A DNA stretch of 64,000 nucleotides. Source: a phage. Position numbers and translations under genes: made by a program. Under the pieces are notes generated by a model. It saw nothing but the letters and a program-made list of their open reading frames with translations, was not told where the DNA came from and did not search any database. Of this stretch, positions 14,200-63,557 are shown piece after piece. The DNA lies in sequence record OZ346228.1. The stretch is one strand, 5' to 3'. How positions within the stretch are numbered: position 1 is the stretch's first letter; the number at the start of each line of letters is the position of its first letter.

Positions 14200-14664
14200 T
14201 CAGTCCTCGCATTTAACAAATTTTTCTATAGATCCACCAAGCACAGCTTGTTGTTTGATGGCACTTTCTTCATCATAGTGGATAGACTTATGTTCCGTAC
14301 CTCCAAACTTACCTGTGTGGAAGGTGTGCACCCAAATCTCTTTAGGAAGGGATTTATTCTCTTCCTCCACCAACTCCCACATACCCCACAAGTGATCTGT
14401 GATATCTCTGATGAAATATCCCTCGCCGAGGTTTGTATTCACACTGTAAGCTGATTCGTGATCTCCGCAAATATAACGGAAGGCAGTGTACTCTTTACCT
14501 GGTGTGAAGTGAGTATCCATTAGTATGGCTGTTAAAGAATAAGGGTCTCGAAAGCCCAAGAACTTTAGTTTAACAATTTCGACATTTACATCTGCAAGAT
14601 TATCCATGACGATCTCCTCTGTTTGGTTGGTGAGAATTATATATAGATCTGGTGGTGGCGTCAA
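14200..14664 (-). CDS. hypothetical protein
   Basis: 154-aa ORF contiguous with neighbouring minus-strand genes; true start may be an internal Met. Confidence 0.45.
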   Translation of the reverse strand: MTPPPDLYIILTNQTEEIVMDNLADVNVEIVKLKFLGFRDPYSLTAILMDTHFTPGKEYTAFRYICGDHESAYSVNTNLGEGYFIRDITDHLWGMWELVEEENKSLPKEIWVHTFHTGKFGGTEHKSIHYDEESAIKQQAVLGGSIEKFVKCED

Positions 14665-14768
14665 GCTTAATTTTAAGAGATCTGAGAGGGTATTTTATTC
14701 AGGAAGGCAATCGCACAGGGTGGAGAAATTTATGAAGGCACAGGCCTCGTTTGAGGCCTTAAATTCTA

Positions 14769-33521: not shown

Positions 33522-35945
33522 ATGAGCATGTGGTCGTTCGACTTTGAGTCATCCGGTTTGCTGGAAGACCCAGATCTTTATTATCACTGCGGCCTGTTTA
33601 AAGAGCTGAATAAGAACCGTTTTATGCTGTTCCTTCCTCTAAATGACCGCACACACTACTCCGAGGAGGATATAGAAAAGGCTAAGAACTTCATTCTGGC
33701 AAAGAAAACTCTTTATAAAGATTTTGAAGTTCGCATAGCAGATTTTTCAGAGTTGGAAGGTTGGCTTACAGGAAATTCTGACTGGTCACCAACAGCTTTG
33801 AACTGCCATAACTGCTACAGTTATGACTTTATGCTGATGGAAAGATTATCTGGTATTCATTTTGATATGTTCCGTGATCCTAAGTGTATGGGGACTATCA
33901 ACGATCACCAGGTTAACCTGTTTGATACGTTGGCGATGAGCCGAATCTTGTGGCCTGATCGCCCTTTACCAAAAGGTTGTCCGGACTCTGTATTCAACCC
34001 GGTTACTAAGAAAATGCAGCCTGTTGGTCCTCACGGCCTTATGGCATGGGGCTACGCCCTTGGTAACCAGAAAGTTCAAATTGATGACTGGCGCGATCTT
34101 CCGTTATGGAAGTATGTGGATCGTGTATTTGAGGACGTTATCATCCAGGAGCTGCTCTGGAAAGAGCTGGTAGCGGAATCAAAAGGTGTATTCTACGGCA
34201 AATCTGACATGCAGAACTTTATGTACGATCCTGCCAAAGAGAAGCCGAAAGGGTTCAAGAAGATCACCTGGAAGAACGCATTACGTCGAGGCATGTTGCA
34301 GCACTTCCTGATGGAGCTGCAGGCCCGTCAGGGTGTATACTTCGACATAGATGGGGCTATTGCTTTACGTGACCGCTGCGATGCGTGGATGAAAGAGATC
34401 GCTGATCGTGTTGAACCACAACTGCCTTTAAAAGAGCTGTCAATGTCTCAGCGGCCCAAGTTCCCTGAAAAGCCGTTTAACCAAGATGGGACAATCTCTA
34501 ATAATGGTTGGAAATGGTTAAAAGATAAGCTTGGCTATCCTGTGGACATGAGTGCTTTAGAGTTCAAAGCCCCACCTAAGCGAGCATTTACCTCTACAGG
34601 AGATGTCAGTAAGATGGGGATAAAATGGTGTGAAGAGATGGGCTGCAAAGACCACGATAAGATGGCTGATTTCTTGAGAGGTTATATTAAGGGCACCTCC
34701 ACACCACAACCTTTACCTAAAGAGCTGATGGATCAGGCAATAAGCGATCTGCAACAGAAGCGAATGCCTGACTGCAAGATACCTATGAAAATCAGCAATC
34801 AGGACGACATTAAGCGATACCTGATCAGTGCTGGTTGGCTTCCGACAATGTGGAGAACTAAGGATGTAACTAAGGACAGCAAGAAGAAAGCTCTACCTGA
34901 TGCAGATGTTGATGCACGAGTATATGCATACATGGACGAGCTTTTAGAGTCAGAGTATTGTGACCTAATTATCAACTTCTGGAACAAAACTGATGCTAAG
35001 TTTCAGACAACAGTGCACAAGTTCCGAAGCTTTCCTAACTCCGAAAGGATTAAAAAGGAAGTGTTCGGGAAAATACGCAGAAAAGCCAGGGCACTTATTA
35101 CTTCTCCGCAACTGAAAGATACGTTTGGACACCTATGTCCGAATCTTGAAAAATTGAACGGAGAGATGGCTAAAGATATCGTCTTGTGGTTATCATTGCG
35201 AAACCGCAGATCGGTCCTTGATCCAATCAAGGAGGATAAGGTTGATACTGGTCTTCTTAATCACCCACGTTTGAAGATTGACCATAAGCTTCCTGCTAAA
35301 AGCTCTGGATTAACAAACACTTCCCGACAGAAACACAGTATTTGTGCAAACATGCCTAAACCATCTCCTAAAGTGGTTATGGGTAAAGAGATGCGTAGCT
35401 TGTGGGGTGTTCCTCCTGGATACTTTGAGATCGGTATTGACGGGTCCAACTTAGAGCAGCTTATCGGGGCTTGGGGTGCCTTTGAGTTCGACAACGGCTT
35501 GTACTATGATGTTGTAAGTAACGGGGACGCACACCAAAACAATGCTGAGGCATATACAAAAGTAGCAGGCAGAGAGGTGTCTCGTAACGACGGTAAACCT
35601 ATCACGTATGGGGTTATGTACGGGGCACAAAAAGATAAAGTTGCAGATATGCTGGATATCTCCCCAGAGTTGGGGCAAAGGGTGATCGATGCACTTTGGG
35701 ATGCCAACCCAGGTCTTAAGGGGCGCAAAGAGGATCTGGAGAAATTCTGGGAAGCAACAGGTAAGAAGTTTATCTACTCTTTTGATGGTCATGCTATCTG
35801 GACCCGATCTAAACACTCTTTACTTAATGCATACCAACAAAATGGCGGCGCATCGTTGTGTGACTTAGTTGGGATACTCATGCACCATCAAATGGTGAAG
35901 CGTGGGTGGTACGATGAAGGTGTTCGTCGTATTATCTATTACCAT
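33522..35945 (+). CDS. DNA polymerase family A, exon 1 (ORF continues to in-intron stop at 35951)
   Basis: 3'-5' exo motif FDFESSG, pol motif A IDGSNLEQL, motif B K..ITYGVMYG; ORF stops right after ...IIYYH-K, before motif C. Confidence 0.8.
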
Positions 35946-36787
35946 AAATAACATTGTGGCTTCGTGCAGTGATGCACGTCGAAAACCTCTTTAATTGACG
36001 GGAAGGCTAAGTTGACTTTTACACCTAAACATGGTAAAAGCTCAATATGCTAATCCGCAGCGAAGACTAAAGGGGTGTAGTTAAAATGGCTAGATCAGTT
36101 GAGTATCACGGATATACCGTGTTTGATGATGGAACAATACCTTTATCGAAACGTGATCATACAACAATGTTTTGTTTTGATAATGGTCGAGGTTACCTTT
36201 GCGTAACCATGTTCATCGAGGGGAAGCAGTGCACAAAAGGTGTCCACCACTTGGTTGCTGAATGCTTTGTATCAAACCCTGATCCTGAAAGGCTCACATG
36301 GGTGAACCATAAGGACGGAAACAAATACAACAATGCATACTGGAACCTTGAATGGACCACCCCTGGTGGAAATATCAAACACGCTTATGATAATGACCTC
36401 AGAGTAAGGCCAGTCGGTGAGTATAATGCCAACGCTGTACTGACCGAGGATGAGGTAACGGAGATTTGCGAACTGTTACAAAGTGGTTTACGACAATGCG
36501 AGATTAGGGATCTTGGGTATCCTTATGAGACGGTCAGAGCCATAAAGCAAAGAAGACAGTGGAAACATATCTCTAAAAACTACACCTGGTAGTAACGTTC
36601 AGAGACTATCGAAAGCATAGCGCCAACATAAATTGGTGCGAAGAAGCGAGTAGAGTAGACCAGCAAGTGCGGTCGAAATGGGAGGTGCCTTGGTAACAAG
36701 GTAGTGAGATAGTCCGATCCATACAGGAAACTGTATGGCTGTGCACGTAATGGTGCGGGGTAGCTTAACGACCTACCTGAACTATTG
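35946..36787 (+). ncRNA. group I self-splicing intron (842 nt) in DNA polymerase gene
   Basis: 5' exon ends in U, intron ends in G; IGS UUGUGG (about 35954-35959) complementary to CCAU|AA; P/Q/R/S-like elements aattgacgggaaggc (~35993), aatccgcagc (~36052), gttcagagacta (~36597), gagatagtcc (~36706); HNH ORF between Q and R. Confidence 0.8.
36086..36592 (+). CDS. HNH homing endonuclease (intron-encoded)
   Basis: 168 aa; HHLVAECF ... NHKDGNKYNNAYWNLEWTT HNH signature; out of frame with polymerase exons; lies within the intron. Confidence 0.8.
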   Translation: MARSVEYHGYTVFDDGTIPLSKRDHTTMFCFDNGRGYLCVTMFIEGKQCTKGVHHLVAECFVSNPDPERLTWVNHKDGNKYNNAYWNLEWTTPGGNIKHAYDNDLRVRPVGEYNANAVLTEDEVTEICELLQSGLRQCEIRDLGYPYETVRAIKQRRQWKHISKNYTW

Positions 36788-37141
36788 GATGAGTACCAAC
36801 TTCAAGTCCCTGACACACCGAAGTATAAGACTGTGTACACCTTCGACACAATCGAAGAACTGGAAGCATTTAAGGCAGAGCAGGAGGCCAAACTTCATGT
36901 GTTCGACGGTCATAAGTACAAAAAGGCACGCAAGGATGAGGACGGAAACGAAGTGGTTGACAGAGACGGAAACACGGTGTACGATCCTATCCTGAACGAT
37001 GACGGAAAGCTTGAACTTATCTGGAGCCCTGTGGGTGAAATGGTGGTGCATTGCTTCTGGCAAGCTTCTAAAATGATGGGCGTCCCGTTCCAGATCACGG
37101 GTGAATACCTGTGTGGTCGTAATTGGGGTGATTGTCACTAA
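36788..37141 (+). CDS. DNA polymerase family A, exon 2
   Basis: Reading frame open from 36764; DEYQLQV supplies the DE of motif C (YYH|DE) when joined to exon 1; ends GRNWGDCH like PolA C-termini (T7 ...GPNWAICH). Confidence 0.7.
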   Translation, partial: DEYQLQVPDTPKYKTVYTFDTIEELEAFKAEQEAKLHVFDGHKYKKARKDEDGNEVVDRDGNTVYDPILNDDGKLELIWSPVGEMVVHCFWQASKMMGVPFQITGEYLCGRNWGDCH

Positions 37142-37190
37142 TGTAAACTATCAACACATGGAAGTGTTGTTGAGCAAAGAGGAGACTTTT

Positions 37191-37475
37191 ATGGTAGTAG
37201 AACCAACAAAAACATTTACATCCATGACTATCCCTGTTATTATGCAGGTGGAGTGTGTTCAGGTATCTCAAGTGTGGCCTGGCACCAAAATCCCGACAGG
37301 GCCTGATTTCTTTCAGGTTGGCAAAGTGTACAATGTCTGGAAGGCACCAGATTGTTACCCTTTCATCAAAGATGACCGTGGGATGCTGTGGTATCTTGGA
37401 AATGATTTGACACTGCACCTTGGGAATGCTATTATTGCAGTATTCAGACTTAACAAGAAGGAGACTGATCAATGA
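37191..37475 (+). CDS. small protein, KDD-motif family
   Basis: ATG after AAAGAGGAG; GKVYNVW...FIKDDRGMLWYL motif shared with neighbouring paralogs; track start 37101 overlaps polymerase exon 2. Confidence 0.45.
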   Translation: MVVEPTKTFTSMTIPVIMQVECVQVSQVWPGTKIPTGPDFFQVGKVYNVWKAPDCYPFIKDDRGMLWYLGNDLTLHLGNAIIAVFRLNKKETDQ

Positions 37476-37699
37476 CGACTTTGGTTAAAGCTACCTTTGT
37501 AGAAGAAAAGATGACAGACCTGTCATTCTTTAAAGAAGGAAAGACCTACGAGGTTTATTACGATAAAGCTCGTGCAAATAAAATGATTAAAGACGAGGAA
37601 GGGGTTGCCTGGTTTATCTCCCATCTGGCAAACGGTGAGTATCATATCTACGGAACCACCCTGCTTGCCAAGTTTGTAGCTGTTGAAGAGGACCTATGA
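37472..37699 (+). CDS. small protein, KDD-motif family
   Basis: 75 aa; GKTYEVYY...MIKDEEGVAWFI. Confidence 0.45.
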   Translation: MTTLVKATFVEEKMTDLSFFKEGKTYEVYYDKARANKMIKDEEGVAWFISHLANGEYHIYGTTLLAKFVAVEEDL

Positions 37700-37890
37700 A
37701 AGTAAAGTATCTGGCTGAGGGTATGAGTAGGTATTTCACCCTTGGTGAAGAATATTGGCCATTTACAAGCAACGGCGATGTCTACGTGAAAGATAATTTC
37801 GGCACGCCATGGTTTTTGCACCCTAACGGGTTAGGGTATTCTATTTATCGCAGTGCAATGAGCGACACAACCCTTGCAGAGTTTGTATAG
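37696..37890 (+). CDS. small protein, KDD-motif family
   Basis: 64 aa; VYVKDNFGTPWFL. Confidence 0.45.
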   Translation: MKVKYLAEGMSRYFTLGEEYWPFTSNGDVYVKDNFGTPWFLHPNGLGYSIYRSAMSDTTLAEFV

Positions 37891-37900
37891 AGGAGGTAGA

Positions 37901-38272
37901 ATGTTAGTAAAAGGTACTCACACAGTCAAACAACGTATCGAAGTTGAGATCGATGACTGCGAGCTGAAGCATATTTTACGGTCATGTTCCAACGTTTTGC
38001 TCCTTAGTATTCTCCAGGAGCGAGCGGAGAACGAGTTCTTAAATGCACTGGCAGGCCGCCCTGGTGATTTCTGTGTGCGTAAGCGTGGTGACAACAAGTC
38101 ATGGCTGTGGGAGATAGACGCAGAATGGGATTACCATAAAAATGAGGGTATAGATGAACCTATTCGTGAATTGACGGACAACGAGGTTCAGATGTACAAT
38201 GAAGTTTGTCAGTGGGCAAAAAGTCAACAAACTTATCTTGATCCTTGGTGGATGATCGAAAATAGTCGTTGA
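37901..38272 (+). CDS. hypothetical protein
   Basis: ATG after GAGGAGG; the track start at 37874 overlaps the upstream gene. Confidence 0.45.
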   Translation: MLVKGTHTVKQRIEVEIDDCELKHILRSCSNVLLLSILQERAENEFLNALAGRPGDFCVRKRGDNKSWLWEIDAEWDYHKNEGIDEPIRELTDNEVQMYNEVCQWAKSQQTYLDPWWMIENSR

Positions 38273-38348
38273 CAGGAAGTAAGATTAGATATAAGATGCT
38301 TCACACAAACAGAGCGTTGATTGTTTAACACTTAAGGAGACCGCTAAG

Positions 38349-38603
38349 ATGAAAATTACTCTGAAGCCAGAATGCGTTGAAAATGACCGAGCTTTTAAAG
38401 ATTGCACAATCGGTGCAATTTATGAAGCAGAGTTTTGTGAGAACCCTTTGGTAAAAGCCCTTCTGGAAGAAGGAGCTCCTCTATCACAGGAAGAGCTTGA
38501 TGAGTTGGAAAACTCAGCACAGTGCCTTACCTTTAAAGATGATGAAGGAGACTCTGTCTGGTGCACTGTTAATGAAGTAGTTTTTGTAAAACCTGAACAT
38601 TAA
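38349..38603 (+). CDS. small protein, KDD-motif family
   Basis: 84 aa; AFKDCTIGAIYEA...TFKDDEGDSVWCT; AAGGAG RBS. Confidence 0.45.
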   Translation: MKITLKPECVENDRAFKDCTIGAIYEAEFCENPLVKALLEEGAPLSQEELDELENSAQCLTFKDDEGDSVWCTVNEVVFVKPEH

Positions 38604-38606
38604 TGC

Positions 38607-38641
38607 TTGACAACAGTCATAGGGCCTACTATAATGGCCCT
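38607..38641 (+). promoter_or_regulatory. sigma70-type promoter with palindrome overlapping the -10
   Basis: TTGACA, 17-nt spacer, TATAAT; palindrome AGGGCC-TACTATAAT-GGCCCT spans the -10. Confidence 0.55.
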
Positions 38642-38666
38642 ATCAAAACGAAAGGGGACCACAGCA

Positions 38667-38939
38667 ATGACCAAACAATATCAACGAATTAAAGCCAAGG
38701 TTAAGCCAGACTATCTGGAGAAGGACTCTGCTTTTCGGGACTGCACAGCTGACAAAGTTTACACAGGGGCCGTCCTGTTGAACGATGAACTTGAAGTAGA
38801 TATTCTGGGTAAAGAGGCCACTATTAAGGACGACCAAGGCGATTATGTTTGCTGCACCACACGTGAGCTAGAAATCTTAGAATACTTCGGTGAAATCTTC
38901 ACCTCTCTTGATGATTACTTAGATGATGAGGAAGCGTGA
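38667..38939 (+). CDS. small protein, KDD-motif family
   Basis: Start at the internal ATG after AAAGGGGA; the track start at 38607 lies inside the promoter; AFRDCTADKVYTG...TIKDDQGDYVCCT. Confidence 0.45.
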   Translation: MTKQYQRIKAKVKPDYLEKDSAFRDCTADKVYTGAVLLNDELEVDILGKEATIKDDQGDYVCCTTRELEILEYFGEIFTSLDDYLDDEEA

Positions 38940-39328
38940 TGAAAAATATTTGGGATATCGATATCTTTGAAGCCTCTAAGCTTGATGGTGCTGATGGAGT
39001 GATTATGGTGTCTGATGGCAAAGCAACACTAACTTCCGGAGATATCATCTATGCCTTGGACGAGCTGGCGCTTCTGAAATCTACCGGTAACACTTTAGAG
39101 GAGCGTCTTCAAGGCTTCGCCTTCAAAGAAGGCACAAATACCGCCATGATGTGCACCACACGGACAGTTCAAGTTGGTAACGGTGTCTATATGATCATTG
39201 CTGTGTGTCCTAAATTCAGCAACGTCAACAAAGATGATGCTGACGCTGTCAACGATGTGGTTGTTCTCTTCGTGGGTGACGCTATGGCAGATCTGATGAA
39301 TGCAGGAGAAGCAGCAAATGAAGACTGA
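38936..39328 (+). CDS. hypothetical protein
   Basis: 130-aa ORF coupled to upstream gene. Confidence 0.45.
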   Translation: MMKNIWDIDIFEASKLDGADGVIMVSDGKATLTSGDIIYALDELALLKSTGNTLEERLQGFAFKEGTNTAMMCTTRTVQVGNGVYMIIAVCPKFSNVNKDDADAVNDVVVLFVGDAMADLMNAGEAANED

Positions 39329-39637: not shown

Positions 39638-39883
39638 ATGGCTGAAGTAGTTGCTCGCGCAGGACAGAAAGTACGTTGTGTGGAAGTAGGTTTTGGTGGC
39701 AAAGGGTGTCAAAACTTGACTCAAGGTAAGGAATACGCTGTTATTTCTGGTGGTGGCGACGAGAGTATTGTGTTCGAGGGCCACATCCTGGATGCTGAAA
39801 ACTTTGAAATCTTTGACGACGATGGAGATCCGATCACCTGCCTGCTGGACGGGAATTGGGGAACTTTCGAAGTGATTGGCTAA
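39638..39883 (+). CDS. hypothetical small protein
   Basis: 81 aa with AGGAGA RBS. Confidence 0.45.
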   Translation: MAEVVARAGQKVRCVEVGFGGKGCQNLTQGKEYAVISGGGDESIVFEGHILDAENFEIFDDDGDPITCLLDGNWGTFEVIG

Positions 39884-39966: not shown

Positions 39967-40332
39967 ATGGAACAAATGAACGATCAAGCGTCGGTTGCGA
40001 TGAACGAGCAAGAACAACCTCAAGAATTTTTCTTAGGGTTAAGTAAAGATCAAGTGTCTCTTCTGCTAGTGCTTTCTTCTTTCATGGGAAGACTTCAGGA
40101 GCTCACACAACAGCCAGAGGCTGAACAATTATTCCAAGCTTTGCGTGAAGAAGAAAAATATCGTCGTTTGGACTATGCCTTAGGTTGGGTAGCTCAACAA
40201 CGAGATATGCTGATGGCCCTCTCTGGGACCACAAGTTTTGCAATGGGGCTGTTGGCTCAAGTTCAGGACAAATTAATTCAAGCAGGGTTTGCACACACGG
40301 CAAACACTAACGAAGAACAAGGAGACAAATAA
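39967..40332 (+). CDS. hypothetical protein
   Basis: 121 aa, Gln/Glu-rich, immediately upstream of SSB. Confidence 0.45.
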   Translation: MEQMNDQASVAMNEQEQPQEFFLGLSKDQVSLLLVLSSFMGRLQELTQQPEAEQLFQALREEEKYRRLDYALGWVAQQRDMLMALSGTTSFAMGLLAQVQDKLIQAGFAHTANTNEEQGDK

Positions 40333-41558
40333 TGAGCGTTATTCAACAATTCGCTAACCCGATGAATCCGCGTGAAACTGTTTTACTGGCTCACGGCATG
40401 ATTAAACGTGTCAGCATCAAGCCTATCAAAGGTGCTGATCCTACAACAGGTATTAAAACCACTGTGTGGCAAGGTAAGAAAATTGAATCCAGCCACACCA
40501 TCTCTTTACTGATTTCTGAACTGGATTCCTCTGATAACCTGCTTCAAGGTGGTGAAGAAGTTTGGATCAGCATGGGTGATAAGCTGCTTAAACCTGGTCA
40601 TCAAGACTCTGTCTCTGTTAAAATTGATGACAAGTGGGAAACCGTAACGCCGGGATGGATCGTAAATATTCCTTTGAAGGCAAACGAGCATAACGGTAAG
40701 ACCTATTACAAAGGCTCACTGGCTAAGATGGTCAAGCTGGGTGCAGGAGAGGCTCCAGCAGCGACTCAGCAGCAAAAACAGCAACAAGGTGCACAATCAC
40801 AAGGCCAGAAGCAGAAACCTCAGCAGAATGCCAATCAGGACGTTTTACGCATCTATGGTGATGTGACTCAGATTGTTGGCAACGTGGTTACTGTTAATGA
40901 CCACAAGATTGGCGAAGGTGCTATGGTTGTAACTGATGAGCAGCTTAAAGACCTGGTGGTAGGTGGTCGTGTTGCAGCCATTGTTGACAAAGACACCGGA
41001 AACATTATCAGTGGTTTCAAGGCCTATCCTCCTAAGGCAGAGAACGGCACTCAAGGCTCTGGTGGCAAGCGTAAATCCTCTTACGACCCTATCGGTGTGG
41101 AAACGGGGCATAGCATCAATGCGTTGCAGATCATCCTGGATCGCGGGTTTAAGGTAGACGACCCACTGGGCGTGGCTAAAACACTGCACGTAGTCACCAT
41201 TGAGCTTAAGAAAGAGTATGCTCAAGCCACCAACCGAGCTGAAGATGAAGTAGGTGCCAGTGTCGGTAATGCGGTGTTGAACGCTTGTCGCCGTATTGAC
41301 AAGAAAACGAAAGTTGATGATTTTGCAGTGGCAATTACTGCAGAAGCAAAAGATGTCTTGACTAATCTAGCTGAGCCGTTGTACGATTGGATCAAGAACG
41401 GTGCTGAGTCCACTGACCATCAAGAACCTCAGGCTGCCAAACAGGAAGCAGCTCCACAGCAAAACACTGTAGACGCTCCTCCTGTAAATGATGCGGAAGA
41501 TGACCCAATGGATCAGAATCCAGCACAGTACGTCTTTGATGATGACATCCCATTTTAA
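40332..41558 (+). CDS. ssb: single-stranded DNA-binding protein (SSB-like) with acidic C-terminal tip
   Basis: 408 aa; C-terminus ...YVFDDDIPF matches the bacterial SSB tail (DDDIPF); Gln-rich flexible linker; AGGAGA RBS; terminator follows. Confidence 0.65.
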   Translation: MSVIQQFANPMNPRETVLLAHGMIKRVSIKPIKGADPTTGIKTTVWQGKKIESSHTISLLISELDSSDNLLQGGEEVWISMGDKLLKPGHQDSVSVKIDDKWETVTPGWIVNIPLKANEHNGKTYYKGSLAKMVKLGAGEAPAATQQQKQQQGAQSQGQKQKPQQNANQDVLRIYGDVTQIVGNVVTVNDHKIGEGAMVVTDEQLKDLVVGGRVAAIVDKDTGNIISGFKAYPPKAENGTQGSGGKRKSSYDPIGVETGHSINALQIILDRGFKVDDPLGVAKTLHVVTIELKKEYAQATNRAEDEVGASVGNAVLNACRRIDKKTKVDDFAVAITAEAKDVLTNLAEPLYDWIKNGAESTDHQEPQAAKQEAAPQQNTVDAPPVNDAEDDPMDQNPAQYVFDDDIPF

Positions 41559-57058: not shown

Positions 57059-57310
57059 TTAACGTTCTACAAAAATACCGTTCAGTTCAATAACCAGGAA
57101 TTTCTGGTCTTCACTATCGTCTCGTGCCAGCACCTCACAGACGTATCGGTCATCCCCATCATCATCGCAGTCAAATACAAGACTGAGGACTTTATCATGG
57201 TAAACCTTCGCCACTACCGCCTCGTAAGTATTGCCGATTGTGAATCCAAGATAATCTCCGATGCATTTGACAACAACATGGTCTCCAGCATTTAAGTCAA
57301 TCTTCGTCAT
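57059..57310 (-). CDS. hypothetical protein
   Basis: Start at internal ATG (MTKIDLNAGDHVVV...) preceded by AAGGAG; the track start at 57376 is further upstream. Confidence 0.45.
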   Translation of the reverse strand: MTKIDLNAGDHVVVKCIGDYLGFTIGNTYEAVVAKVYHDKVLSLVFDCDDDGDDRYVCEVLARDDSEDQKFLVIELNGIFVER

Positions 57311-58106: not shown

Positions 58107-58435
58107 TAGTCTTTCTCCAGGTTCAAAGGTCCTAAGATTTCATATGCCAGATTAGAAGTTACCAGAGGGTCTTCTGCATCTTTAGTATTGTACCACCCGT
58201 GAATAACCAGAGTCCCACTTTGTTTCATATCCAACTGGAACTGTTCTGCAGTTTCCTCATCCAGCTCCAAGATTTCCATAAGGTATTTGATGTTAGGAAG
58301 GTATGCAGCTGTTACAGTTCCCTCCACCAAACCTTCGGGCCAACCTACATCCGGATGACAAGTAGGAACCAGGTTGGTCAACTTAATGGTGTACGCTTTT
58401 TCTGCACGAGCCTTCAGTAACGGGTCAATCTTCAT
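58106..58435 (-). CDS. small acidic protein
   Basis: 109 aa; start overlaps upstream stop. Confidence 0.45.
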   Translation of the reverse strand: MKIDPLLKARAEKAYTIKLTNLVPTCHPDVGWPEGLVEGTVTAAYLPNIKYLMEILELDEETAEQFQLDMKQSGTLVIHGWYNTKDAEDPLVTSNLAYEILGPLNLEKD

Positions 58436-58785
58436 TATTCGTCCTCCTCTTCGGTGCCTGCTTCCAGTAATAAGTTAAGAATATCTTCTGCACAAGGCTC
58501 ATAGAACTCTTGGCCTTCATTATCGATGATTTTGTAGTCATCTCCACGAATAATCAGGGGATCACTCTCAAAATTATCGAGACCTTTAACAACGACAACA
58601 CGATCGATTGCCATCATTGTAAGAACTTTATCGACATCTTCCTCTGCTACACCATACTGCAGCAGAATGTCTTTGGTAGGAGGAACAGCATCCACCACAA
58701 CGCCGTTACCAAAACCTTCTGGAAGTTTAGCTAAAATATCTTCCGGAACCACATTCACATCAAAACCGGTAATTTCTACTTTCAT
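58435..58785 (-). CDS. small acidic protein (paralog family)
   Basis: 116 aa; MKVEITGFD start; poly-Glu C-terminus. Confidence 0.45.
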   Translation of the reverse strand: MKVEITGFDVNVVPEDILAKLPEGFGNGVVVDAVPPTKDILLQYGVAEEDVDKVLTMMAIDRVVVVKGLDNFESDPLIIRGDDYKIIDNEGQEFYEPCAEDILNLLLEAGTEEEDE

Positions 58786-63078: not shown

Positions 63079-63273
63079 TTAGAATATTGCTTCTTCCATT
63101 GCGCCTGAGAGCAACAAAGAGGTGATCTGGCTAACATTCATCTCAGACTCTACTTCCTCCCCTTTGAAAGGTTCGCGGCAGAATAGGACTGTTTCAGGAC
63201 TTTTACTTCGAACAATATAATACAAATCATTCAATGTGTTGTAGTAATAAGTGTTAAAACGTAAGTTTTTCAT
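63079..63273 (-). CDS. hypothetical small protein
   Basis: 64-aa ORF overlapping upstream stop. Confidence 0.4.
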   Translation of the reverse strand: MKNLRFNTYYYNTLNDLYYIVRSKSPETVLFCREPFKGEEVESEMNVSQITSLLLSGAMEEAIF

Positions 63274-63557
63274 TTTCTAGTCCTCTTCTTAGATTTTTGG
63301 GGAGAAACGCTTTCTGCAATACGAGACAGACGTTCTTCTGAAGCCTTACCTACTCCAGGTTTTTTGAGTGGATTATCTTTATGACCACAATCCAACTGGA
63401 TATTGGATACCTCTCCAACTTTGTAAGTCAATTCTAGCAAAAGGTTGTCGTCCTTGTCAAATGTTTTTACGATAAATTTTTTATCGTTCTCCTGAACTTC
63501 ATATCTGGTACCTGCAGTATACAGCATGGTGCCATCAGCATAGGATATCCAGATCAT
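63270..63557 (-). CDS. hypothetical protein with basic C-terminus
   Basis: 95 aa; C-terminal KSKKRTRK. Confidence 0.45.
   Translation of the reverse strand: MIWISYADGTMLYTAGTRYEVQENDKKFIVKTFDKDDNLLLELTYKVGEVSNIQLDCGHKDNPLKKPGVGKASEERLSRIAESVSPQKSKKRTRK

Follow-up and report, generated by a model that had tools for sequence, protein, structure and literature searches.

Gp54 of phage Bas11 is a non-essential protein of 66 residues that binds CapRelSJ46 and activates it by partial unfolding (PMC11578894). Its solved structure (PDB 9AXB; Pfam PF25180, "Phage antiviral trigger protein Gp54") is a six-stranded β-barrel, a topology called "very rare" by its authors, and even close homologues of Gp54 fail to activate CapRel (PMC11578894). 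Enterococcus phage 47 encodes TifA (Orf65), a small, acidic inhibitor of type IV restriction enzymes that binds these enzymes directly and has an SH3-like N-domain (PMC11322646).

Here we describe five small genes (A–E) in a 64-kb window, which is the whole stretch of DNA that was analysed and the genome of a phage of Vequintavirus type (an rV5-like coliphage). Gp54, known solely as a trigger of the CapRelSJ46 immune sensor, is the closest solved relative of the proteins of this locus and supplies no mechanism for them.

The gene cluster

Genes A–E have the same orientation and lie directly 3' of the primase-helicase and DNA polymerase genes. All five ORFs of the original prediction were found in place, and they are real, intact genes under purifying selection. 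The first three are gene A (37191..37475, plus strand, 94 amino acids), which has an AGGAGA ribosome-binding site upstream and a long insertion in the region of the β1-β2 loop, gene B (37472..37699, plus strand, 75 amino acids), and gene C (37696..37890, plus strand, 64 amino acids). Between A and B, and again between B and C, the stop codon overlaps the next start codon as ATGA, so that the three are probably translated in series. The second set consists of gene D (38349..38603, plus strand, 84 amino acids, net charge -13) and gene E (38667..38939, plus strand, 90 amino acids, net charge -12.5), the latter with an acidic C-terminal tail, DDYLDDEEA. A neighbouring protein of 408 residues has the C-terminus DDDIPF, which is also the known tip of E. 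coli SSB.

The cluster is kept, with strong conservation, in 114 of 118 related genomes, and a scan of IMG/VR added only two further close loci, both with the usual three-plus-two layout. Four divergent relatives have intact copies of all of the genes, and dN/dS values range from 0 to 0.27 (gene C, 0.08–0.11; gene E, 0.05–0.27; gene H, described below, 0.05–0.10). Gene A differs from these divergent relatives by 28–30 synonymous and 0–1 nonsynonymous changes. Within the genus, the A–E proteins are highly conserved, and A is nearly invariant. Word-indexed homologue searches returned almost exclusively proteins of Vequintavirus type. Each of the five proteins falls in its own PHROG, a family without assigned function; Pfam and NCBIfam yielded no family above cut-off and no curated match for any of them, nor did a sequence search against solved structures give a match.

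Alignment shows A, B, and C to be full-length paralogs, attributable to tandem gene duplication (Smith-Waterman against shuffled sequences, z = 9.6 for A-B and 7.2 for B-C, with full-length alignments in support). By the same measure, D and E are shown to be a second, strongly acidic pair in tandem (z = 14.3; 43% identity, including KDDxGD and the AF(K/R)DCT segment that had been predicted as common to both). The scores of A-B, B-C, and D-E, all adjacent on the same strand, were reached by 0 of 300 shuffles. The five had been proposed to be paralogs of one another; this stands within A/B/C and within D/E but is unproven across the groups, where every pair is at background (z < 2.7). The HMM of either group misses the other among the 905 ORFs of the window.

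Predicted barrels and the shared motif

Structure models cover B and D, with A and C placed by homology to B. The B model is a six-stranded β-barrel with a prominent β1-β2 connection, as in 9AXB, and B, and by homology A and C, are thus modelled as Gp54-type barrels. Among phage proteins, many small, uncharacterised ones are similar to the B model. The link between A/B/C and Gp54 is structural only. In hmmscan with E-values up to 1, none of A–E matched PF25180 (cut-off 27 bits), for which Bas11 Gp54 itself scores 116 bits, and in hhalign the A/B/C profile had no significant match to six Gp54 homologues (P = 0.31); identity is 14%. Gp54 also lacks the tyrosine and D[DE] of the motif described below, and its family is confined to siphoviruses of the Drexlerviridae.

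The D model is a five-stranded SH3-like barrel that superposes on solved SH3-type domains. Its confidence is moderate (pLDDT 74; three of five models score below 55). Eukaryotic SH3 domains, Mib/HERC2 domains, the C-terminal domain of retroviral integrase, and YorP of the SPbeta prophage match D at the level of the fold only (4–16% identity). Unlike canonical SH3-like barrels, D is predicted to have an extra two-helix insert of about 25 residues, located between G22..Y25 and the F62-K-D-D-E-G67 hairpin, and it lacks the proline-peptide-binding signature. A role for D and E as nucleic-acid binders was rejected on their net charge of about -13.

The pattern [IVF]KD[DEN]xGxx[WV] has exactly five matches in a six-frame translation of the window, one in each of genes A–E, where about 0.012 are expected from composition and none of 2000 shuffles exceeded one. 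This nine-residue pattern was defined post hoc. Since the members within A/B/C, and likewise those within D/E, are homologous, the matches amount to about two independent occurrences rather than five. An upstream G..Y had been predicted in all five proteins and was found in A, B, C, and D but not in E, which has A-D-K-V-Y; G..Y does occur in some variants of E and in an E-like protein that is divergent. The predicted spacing of 10 to 25 residues between the two elements is seen in A (11), B (12), C (10), and E (20) but not in D, where the gap is 36 residues because of the helical insertion.

In the B and D models, the motif is shown to belong to the fold rather than to form a catalytic site. 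In both, G..Y lies at the start of strand 2, and hKD[DE]xGxx[WV] runs from the end of one strand through a Gly turn of four residues into the beginning of the strand that follows. In the B model, strand 2 begins at G23..Y26, and I39-K-D-E-E-G44-V-A-W47 forms the hairpin of strand 3, turn, and strand 4. By their secondary-structure strings, the two models agree in the hairpin that carries the motif. D, however, matches SH3 domains in general and not Gp54, to which the B model has a strong match. The reading of the motif as a catalytic or metal site was rejected, as there is no enzyme-family match and the motif maps to a hairpin.

Wider relatives and possible roles

Judged by its sequence, the domain of A/B/C falls in an uncharacterised superfamily that is scattered among phages and has the signature FxxGxxY ... 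hxD[DE]xGxxW, an informal grouping defined in this analysis. An HMM built from non-window relatives only retrieved A, B, and C from the 905 window ORFs with E-values of 1.5e-7, 9e-11, and 1.6e-11, respectively. The five genes are not the full set in the window, as two more are probable members. Gene H (39638..39883, plus strand, 81 amino acids, net charge -10; TQGKEYAV ... IFDDDGDPI) was found at an E-value of 0.0026 and has a sub-threshold match to Pfam DUF7244 (14.5 bits, E-value 0.039, cut-off 27 bits). The other, at 57059..57310 on the minus strand (83 amino acids, net charge -10; VKCIGDYLGFTIGNTYEA ... DCDDDGDDRY), was found at an E-value of 0.0089, and the same protein exists as cluster P0092.

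The gene is present in three copies in Vequintavirus and in seven in a relative, L013. Elsewhere, some single chains carry two to five copies of the domain, which also occurs fused to DUF3310, and in other phages it is located among small early genes and not among replication genes. An exhaustive profile search gave 18 matches only. P0080, P0082, and P0083 were set aside as long repetitive proteins whose scores sum many weak repeats; P0077, a β-helix protein of 1743 residues in which six or seven repeats score moderately, is a possible member.

At least 15 PHROG families without assigned function, DUF7244, the multi-repeat proteins, and the DUF3310 fusions share one signature and may be linked. 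DUF7244 (PF23896), related small uncharacterised proteins such as Bas11 gp41, and multi-repeat proteins such as P0078, P0079, P0087, and P0088 share with A/B/C the signature h-K-C-h ... F-T-x-G-K-x-Y-x-V ... h-x-D-D-x-G, in a domain of the same size as that of A/B/C (about 60 residues). Bas11 gp41 is a clear DUF7244 member (92.5 bits, E-value 1.7e-26) and a weak match to the HMM of non-window relatives (E-value 0.0067). None of A–E matches the DUF7244 model (cut-off 27 bits). In DUF7244-type relatives the domain is often repeated or fused to DUF3310 in one chain, whereas here there is one gene per copy.

Besides its N-domain, TifA has a second domain, which is unrelated. The phage 47 ORF was identified as TifA by Leu32 and by 84.4% identity to the phage SDS2 homologue. 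A 210-residue, two-domain protein of the same phage was ruled out as TifA, since its residue 32 is Glu; that protein is itself a clear superfamily member (E-value 5.6e-16). TifA contains 21.5% Asp plus Glu, to which D and E are comparable in acidity, and in its N-domain LGKAYEIV ... VYVDE lines up with the motif. The N-domain matches the superfamily profile weakly (E-value 0.008 among 308 ORFs). In hhalign, TifA gave P = 0.0011 with the broad profile (probability 21%), 0.043 with A/B/C, and 0.19 with D/E, and homology of either group to TifA fell below significance. We know of no Vequintavirus protein with anti-restriction activity.

Sequence profiles are no more than suggestive of a link between A/B/C and D/E. 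Direct profile-profile comparison of the groups gave a probability of 1.65%, and with the HMM of non-window relatives the E-values were 10 for gene D and 1.2 for gene E (0.057 and 0.93 with a broader HMM). Three broader profiles aligned co-linearly with D/E in hhalign (P = 7.6e-5, 3e-4, and 8.9e-4; probabilities of 62%, 40%, and 23%), in a register of strand 1, FxxGxxY, and then xDDxGD. In a profile ranking of 320 ORFs, D was 6th and the top among ORFs outside the profile (P = 1.9e-4, about 0.06 when corrected), and gene E, at 13th, was not significant.

We consider it an even question whether A–E, H, and the gene at 57059..57310 all derive from one ancestral barrel domain, an extension of the single family first proposed, with D and E as divergent members from which the sixth strand was lost and to which a helical insert or acidic tail was added. 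The recurrence of one co-linear register in three different profiles, the rank of D, the agreement of both models in the order of secondary-structure elements, the adjacency of the genes, and the restored G..Y of the divergent E-like protein argue for such an origin. Set against it are the result of the direct comparison, the E-values above 1 in HMM cross-searches, the values for D and E after correction for 320 tests, and the list of matches to the D model, which has generic SH3 domains and no Gp54. Convergence or chance, by which two unrelated small barrels would be neighbours by accident, is possible but somewhat doubtful: hairpins in which an acidic Gly turn (KDDxG) joins the strands would be common, but the broad-profile match extends over three separate segments, and in many superfamily members, among them the P0079 repeats, FxxGxxY is likewise followed by a similar xDDxGD hairpin. 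Given the weak cross-group link and the different fold matches, "five paralogs" is unproven, and an arrangement of three plus two, possibly within one superfamily, fits.

Genes A–E form two tandemly duplicated families of small cytoplasmic proteins, modelled as β-barrels, in which the aromatic residue after the turn would pack into the barrel core. The chances seem to us balanced that the proteins of these families serve as non-enzymatic binding modules in the takeover of the host or in counter-defence. Such modules would be expressed from host-polymerase promoters matching the sigma-70 consensus and would act stoichiometrically, without catalysis, and the divergent surface of each paralog would engage a different partner, of host or phage origin. 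Duplication would adjust copy number, and CapRel and similar host sensors could be detecting these same barrels. The lack of an enzyme or nucleic-acid signature, the net charge of -10 to -13 for D, E, and H, and the modular behaviour apparent in domain repeats, DUF3310 fusions, and variable copy number are consistent with binding modules, and TifA offers a functional parallel. Counter-defence genes often evolve fast; the high conservation within the genus argues against that role and fits a housekeeping partner equally well. These functions are inferred, and no new mechanism is demonstrated.

It is rather unlikely that the proteins are instead accessory replisome or recombination subunits that bind the polymerase, the helicase-primase, or a nearby SSB-like protein. 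Their place directly behind the primase-helicase and polymerase genes in the same orientation, their strong conservation in 114 of 118 genomes, the occurrence of SH3-like barrels in RecD, the acidic tail of E, and the SSB-like end of the adjoining 408-residue protein would suit such subunits. However, the structural relative Gp54 is dispensable in Bas11, the copies number three to seven and differ between relatives, members also occur elsewhere in the genome on the other strand, and other phages keep the domain among small early genes. That the proteins are minor virion or assembly proteins is highly improbable. One weak match to a PHROG labelled virion structural protein (E-value 7e-4) and one BFVD neighbour labelled putative minor capsid protein point that way, but these labels are untested annotations, and the genes lie in the replication/early region behind sigma-70-type promoters. 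Searching the supplementary files of the rV5 paper for the neighbouring gene numbers gave no hits, a result that is uninformative on virion content.

A broader version of the binding-module proposal, which we regard as unlikely, is that the FxxGxxY ... hxD[DE]xGxxW barrel, with the Gp54-like six-stranded form included, is a widespread modular "decoy or clamp" domain that neutralises host defences and is sensed by CapRel-type sensors. In phages of Gram-negative as well as Gram-positive hosts, the barrel would have been duplicated, strung together, and fused so as to bind different host defence proteins, as TifA does type IV restriction enzymes, and the three- to seven-copy arrays beside the Vequintavirus polymerase would be a counter-defence arsenal. 

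Gp54 is the only solved example of its barrel topology, and if the models hold, the fold is common in phages. These conserved "hypothetical proteins" of Vequintavirus are candidate triggers or inhibitors of host defence systems. Testing these candidates is relevant because rV5-like phages are in use for typing and therapy of E. coli.

Promoters and the start of gene E

The authors of the rV5 genome described 33 sigma-70-like promoters scattered over it (PMC3606486). Upstream of D is a sigma-70-type promoter-like site (38269..38297, plus strand; TTGACA-N17-TAAGAT) with 10 of 12 matches to consensus and both hexamers unchanged in five phages. The gap between D and E contains a perfect consensus promoter (38607..38635, plus strand; TTGACA-N17-TATAAT, 12 of 12 matches), supporting the one predicted there; its hexamers are invariant in six phages and its spacer is variable. 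Both sites are carried as predicted promoters in the annotation of phage Gotham.

The promoter lies within the longer reading frame of gene E, for which the internal ATG at 38667 had been proposed as the true start. This ATG is the most likely start, as supported by the promoter upstream and by a conserved Shine-Dalgarno sequence, AAAGG(G/A)GA, located 7–8 nucleotides ahead of it. The annotations of phages Gotham, isim, and SYGMH1 likewise begin gene E at this ATG. Transcription from the promoter is predicted to start near 38642, which would rule out the TTG at 38607 and the ATG at 38634 as starts of the gene. The -10 hexamer of the E promoter lies between the arms of an 8-bp inverted repeat (ATAGGGCC / GGCCCTAT), and the corresponding hairpin has a folding energy of -15.6 kcal/mol (z = -2.1).

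Motif distribution and paralogy

The genes in question lie on the + strand, directly preceded by the primase-helicase and DNA polymerase genes. They comprise the motif-bearing ORFs A (37191–37475, 94 amino acids), B (37472–37699, 75 amino acids), C (37696–37890, 64 amino acids), D (38349–38603, 84 amino acids), and E (38667–38939, 90 amino acids), along with X (37901–38272, 123 amino acids), which is without the motif, and a further gene, H (39638–39883, 81 amino acids). Window 37100–39000 is matched at ≥88% identity by 118 phage records, nearly all of Vequintavirus (rV5-like) myoviruses, with the Escherichia phages naswa and magaca at 99.9%; the ORFs are annotated throughout as 'hypothetical protein'. 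Four relatives, at 81–98% nucleotide identity, keep all five motif ORFs intact, and dN/dS ranges from 0 to 0.27, which indicates that the + frame is coding and constrained. Gene A differs from its relatives by 28–30 synonymous and 0–1 non-synonymous changes. Sixteen records named 'Campylobacter phage' (e.g., C2, A112b, and A141) have 91–95% identity to the same interval, suggesting that phages in that data set were mislabelled or were contaminants.

The original prediction had united A–E as paralogs through a G..Y segment and an (I/F)KD(D/E).G..W motif. Translating the whole window in all six frames yields five instances of the pattern [IVF]KD[DEN]xGxx[WV], one per ORF and none elsewhere. The chance expectation is ~0.012 matches, a figure that overstates the case because the pattern was defined after the five ORFs had been seen and the five are not independent. 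The upstream G..Y is present in A–D but is A..Y in E, and the predicted Y-to-hairpin gap of 10–25 residues holds for all except D (36 residues). AF(K/R)DCT is indeed common to D and E. Two clusters of gene A variants (P0004 and P0009) carry an in-frame 11-residue tandem duplication immediately before the hairpin motif (KAPDCHPFIKE-KAPNCYPFIKDD).

Paralogy was evident within two groups but not across them. Smith-Waterman scores against 300 shuffles gave z = 9.6 (A–B), 7.2 (B–C), and 14.3 (D–E), whereas all pairs between A/B/C and D/E were at background. The alignment of A, B, and C spans the whole of each protein, with a long insert in A after the first strand; D and E are 43% identical, with a helical insert in D and an acidic tail in E. 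PHROGs places each protein in a separate family, the sole cross-matches being D–E (about 1e-6) and, weakly, B to the family of A. Among 905 window ORFs, neither group HMM found the other group, and direct profile-profile comparison aligned only the 16-column hairpin (probability 1.65%). ATGA overlaps at the A/B and B/C junctions suggest that these genes are translationally coupled.

Wider family of barrel domains

Word-indexed searches found relatives of Vequintavirus type only. A profile of A/B/C searched against 1.84 billion representative proteins gave 18 matches at E ≤ 1e-3, among them single-domain proteins of 60–71 residues, proteins with 2–5 tandem copies of the A/B/C-type unit of roughly 60 residues each (P0078, P0079, P0084, P0085, P0087, and P0088), and two DUF3310 fusions (P0088 and P0091). 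P0088-type proteins come from Enterococcus siphoviruses. A profile built solely from non-window sequences recovered C (E = 1.6e-11), B (9e-11), and A (1.5e-7), and matched H (E = 0.0026) and an 83-residue gene at 57059–57310(−) (E = 0.0089); it did not pick up D (E = 10) or E (E = 1.2). The signature can be refined to F-x-x-G-x-x-Y, 10–13 residues, then h-x-D-[DEN]-x-G-x-x-W, with no conservation of the Lys in 'KD'.

Borderline matches to the barrel-domain profile (E within 0.02–0.25) came from three more small ORFs, 63270–63557(−), 14203–14694(−), and 58435–58785(−), which contain segments such as YTAGTRYEV, FTPGKEYTAF, and IIDNEGQEF and may be additional divergent members. Several small proteins of Escherichia phage Bas11 were also borderline with the non-window profile, including gp41, a clear member of Pfam DUF7244.

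The broader profiles brought D/E closer to A/B/C. Against D/E, the 33-sequence profile of the superfamily of phage barrel domains bearing this signature gave P = 1.4e-4, improving to 7.6e-5 (probability 62%) with D-like and E-like sequences added from L013, a divergent Vequintavirus-like metagenomic contig (Logan SRR3715619). The non-window profile gave P = 3e-4 and an extended A/B/C profile 8.9e-4, and these three kinds of profile align with D/E in one shared co-linear register. In a control over 320 window ORFs, D headed those not included in the profile, with P 1.9e-4 (about 0.06 corrected), and E ranked 13th. D/E are possibly related to A/B/C, and we consider the chances of common ancestry to be roughly even.

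At 2930–5352 of L013, with the polymerase arranged as in the window, there are seven A/B/C-type genes instead of three, one each of the D-like, E-like, and H-like genes, and two insertions behind the A-like gene, one Ead/Ea22-like and the other a gene of 63 residues. The layout at other Vequintavirus loci is three plus two plus H. The polymerase-to-X interval is therefore a place where genes are gained and lost.

Structural relatives and candidate functions

In the predicted structures of B (a six-stranded barrel) and D (an SH3-like barrel, at moderate confidence), G..Y lies at the start of strand 2 and KD[DE]xG forms the turn between the two strands that come next; the aromatic residue falls near the beginning of the strand following the turn. 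These positions identify the motif, as modelled, as a fold element. The observation behind the original prediction is real but over-unified: the models point to three Gp54-like barrels (A, B, and C) and two acidic SH3-like proteins (D and E), and other parts of the window hold at least two more probable members. All belong to kinds of small phage protein that are already known but whose function is uncharacterised.

Gp54 of Bas11 is a non-essential 66-residue protein of unknown function that opens its barrel to bind the antitoxin domain of CapRelSJ46, activating the toxin; its six-stranded topology was described as very rare, the nearest fold being SH3 (PMC11578894). By sequence, no link emerged between A/B/C and the Gp54 family (Pfam PF25180): hmmscan gave no match and hhalign P = 0.31, although the hhalign alignment sets F-x-x-G against F-K-K-G and G-x-x-W against G-L-T-W. 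Foldseek searches of viral models returned many small uncharacterised proteins at TM-scores of 0.7–0.8, mostly from phages of enterobacteria and including a Cronobacter relative.

From their size and fold, and with no match to an enzyme family, we infer that these proteins would serve as non-enzymatic binding modules. This reading is favored by the occurrence of the domain as repeats and fusions in variable copy number, and by the binding of a host protein by Gp54, the sole characterised structural relative. With net charges between −10 and −13, D, E, and H are strongly negative, and this speaks against nucleic-acid binding. A possible functional parallel is TifA of Enterococcus phage 47, an acidic protein that has an SH3-like N-domain and inhibits type IV restriction enzymes by binding them (PMC11322646). 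TifA, taken as the 135-residue ORF with Leu32 (84.4% identical to its counterpart in phage SDS2), matched the superfamily profile weakly (E = 0.008, P = 0.0011). A counter-defence role has a serious rival in a replisome-accessory role, since very high conservation within the genus and position beside replication genes speak for the latter and count against the former.

Promoters and neighboring genes

A perfect TTGACA-N17-TATAAT promoter precedes E at 38607–38635(+); in six phages both hexamers are invariant and five spacer positions vary. A conserved AAAGG(G/A)GA lies 7–8 nt 5' of ATG 38667, the start of E in three database records; two others use an ATG inside the −10 hexamer. The proposed re-assignment to ATG 38667 is accordingly the better-supported choice on these sequence features. 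Another conserved site that resembles a promoter lies ahead of D (38269–38297(+), by sequence match), and 33 sigma-70-like promoters have been described across the rV5 genome (PMC3606486). Predicted sigma-70-like sites also occur inside gene A at 37407–37435(+) and 37215–37243(+), with 11/12 and 10/12 consensus matches and both with an extended −10 (TG), and may be candidate internal promoters for B and C.

The −10 hexamer before E is flanked by a perfect 8-bp inverted repeat (ATAGGGCC / GGCCCTAT; 38619–38643(+)), with an RNA fold of −15.6 kcal/mol (z = −2.1). Two natural variants are seen, one with G for A in the 5' arm and one with T for C in the 3' arm; in + strand RNA, either would still allow a G-U pair. 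The repeat could be an operator, or the 3' hairpin of transcripts ending after D.

The DNA polymerase gene is split by an 842-bp insertion (window 35946–36787) that is absent from naswa, and the coding sequences on either side of it fit together exactly (...RRIIYYH | DEYQLQ...). Positions 35936–36737 match the Rfam group I intron (RF00028; 39.1 bits, E = 9e-8), under the gathering score of 50. The insertion contains a 168-residue HNH-type ORF (36086–36592), which the annotation of phage isim names an HNH endonuclease. The split also occurs in isim, SYGMH1, and contig L013, and not in naswa or Gotham.

A 408-residue protein of unknown function (40332–41558(+)), with no match in Pfam or NCBIfam, ends in ...VFDDDIPF. 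DDDIPF also forms the C-terminal tip of E. coli SSB, where it recruits proteins of replication and repair, and this product is possibly an SSB-like protein of the phage or an SSB-tail mimic.
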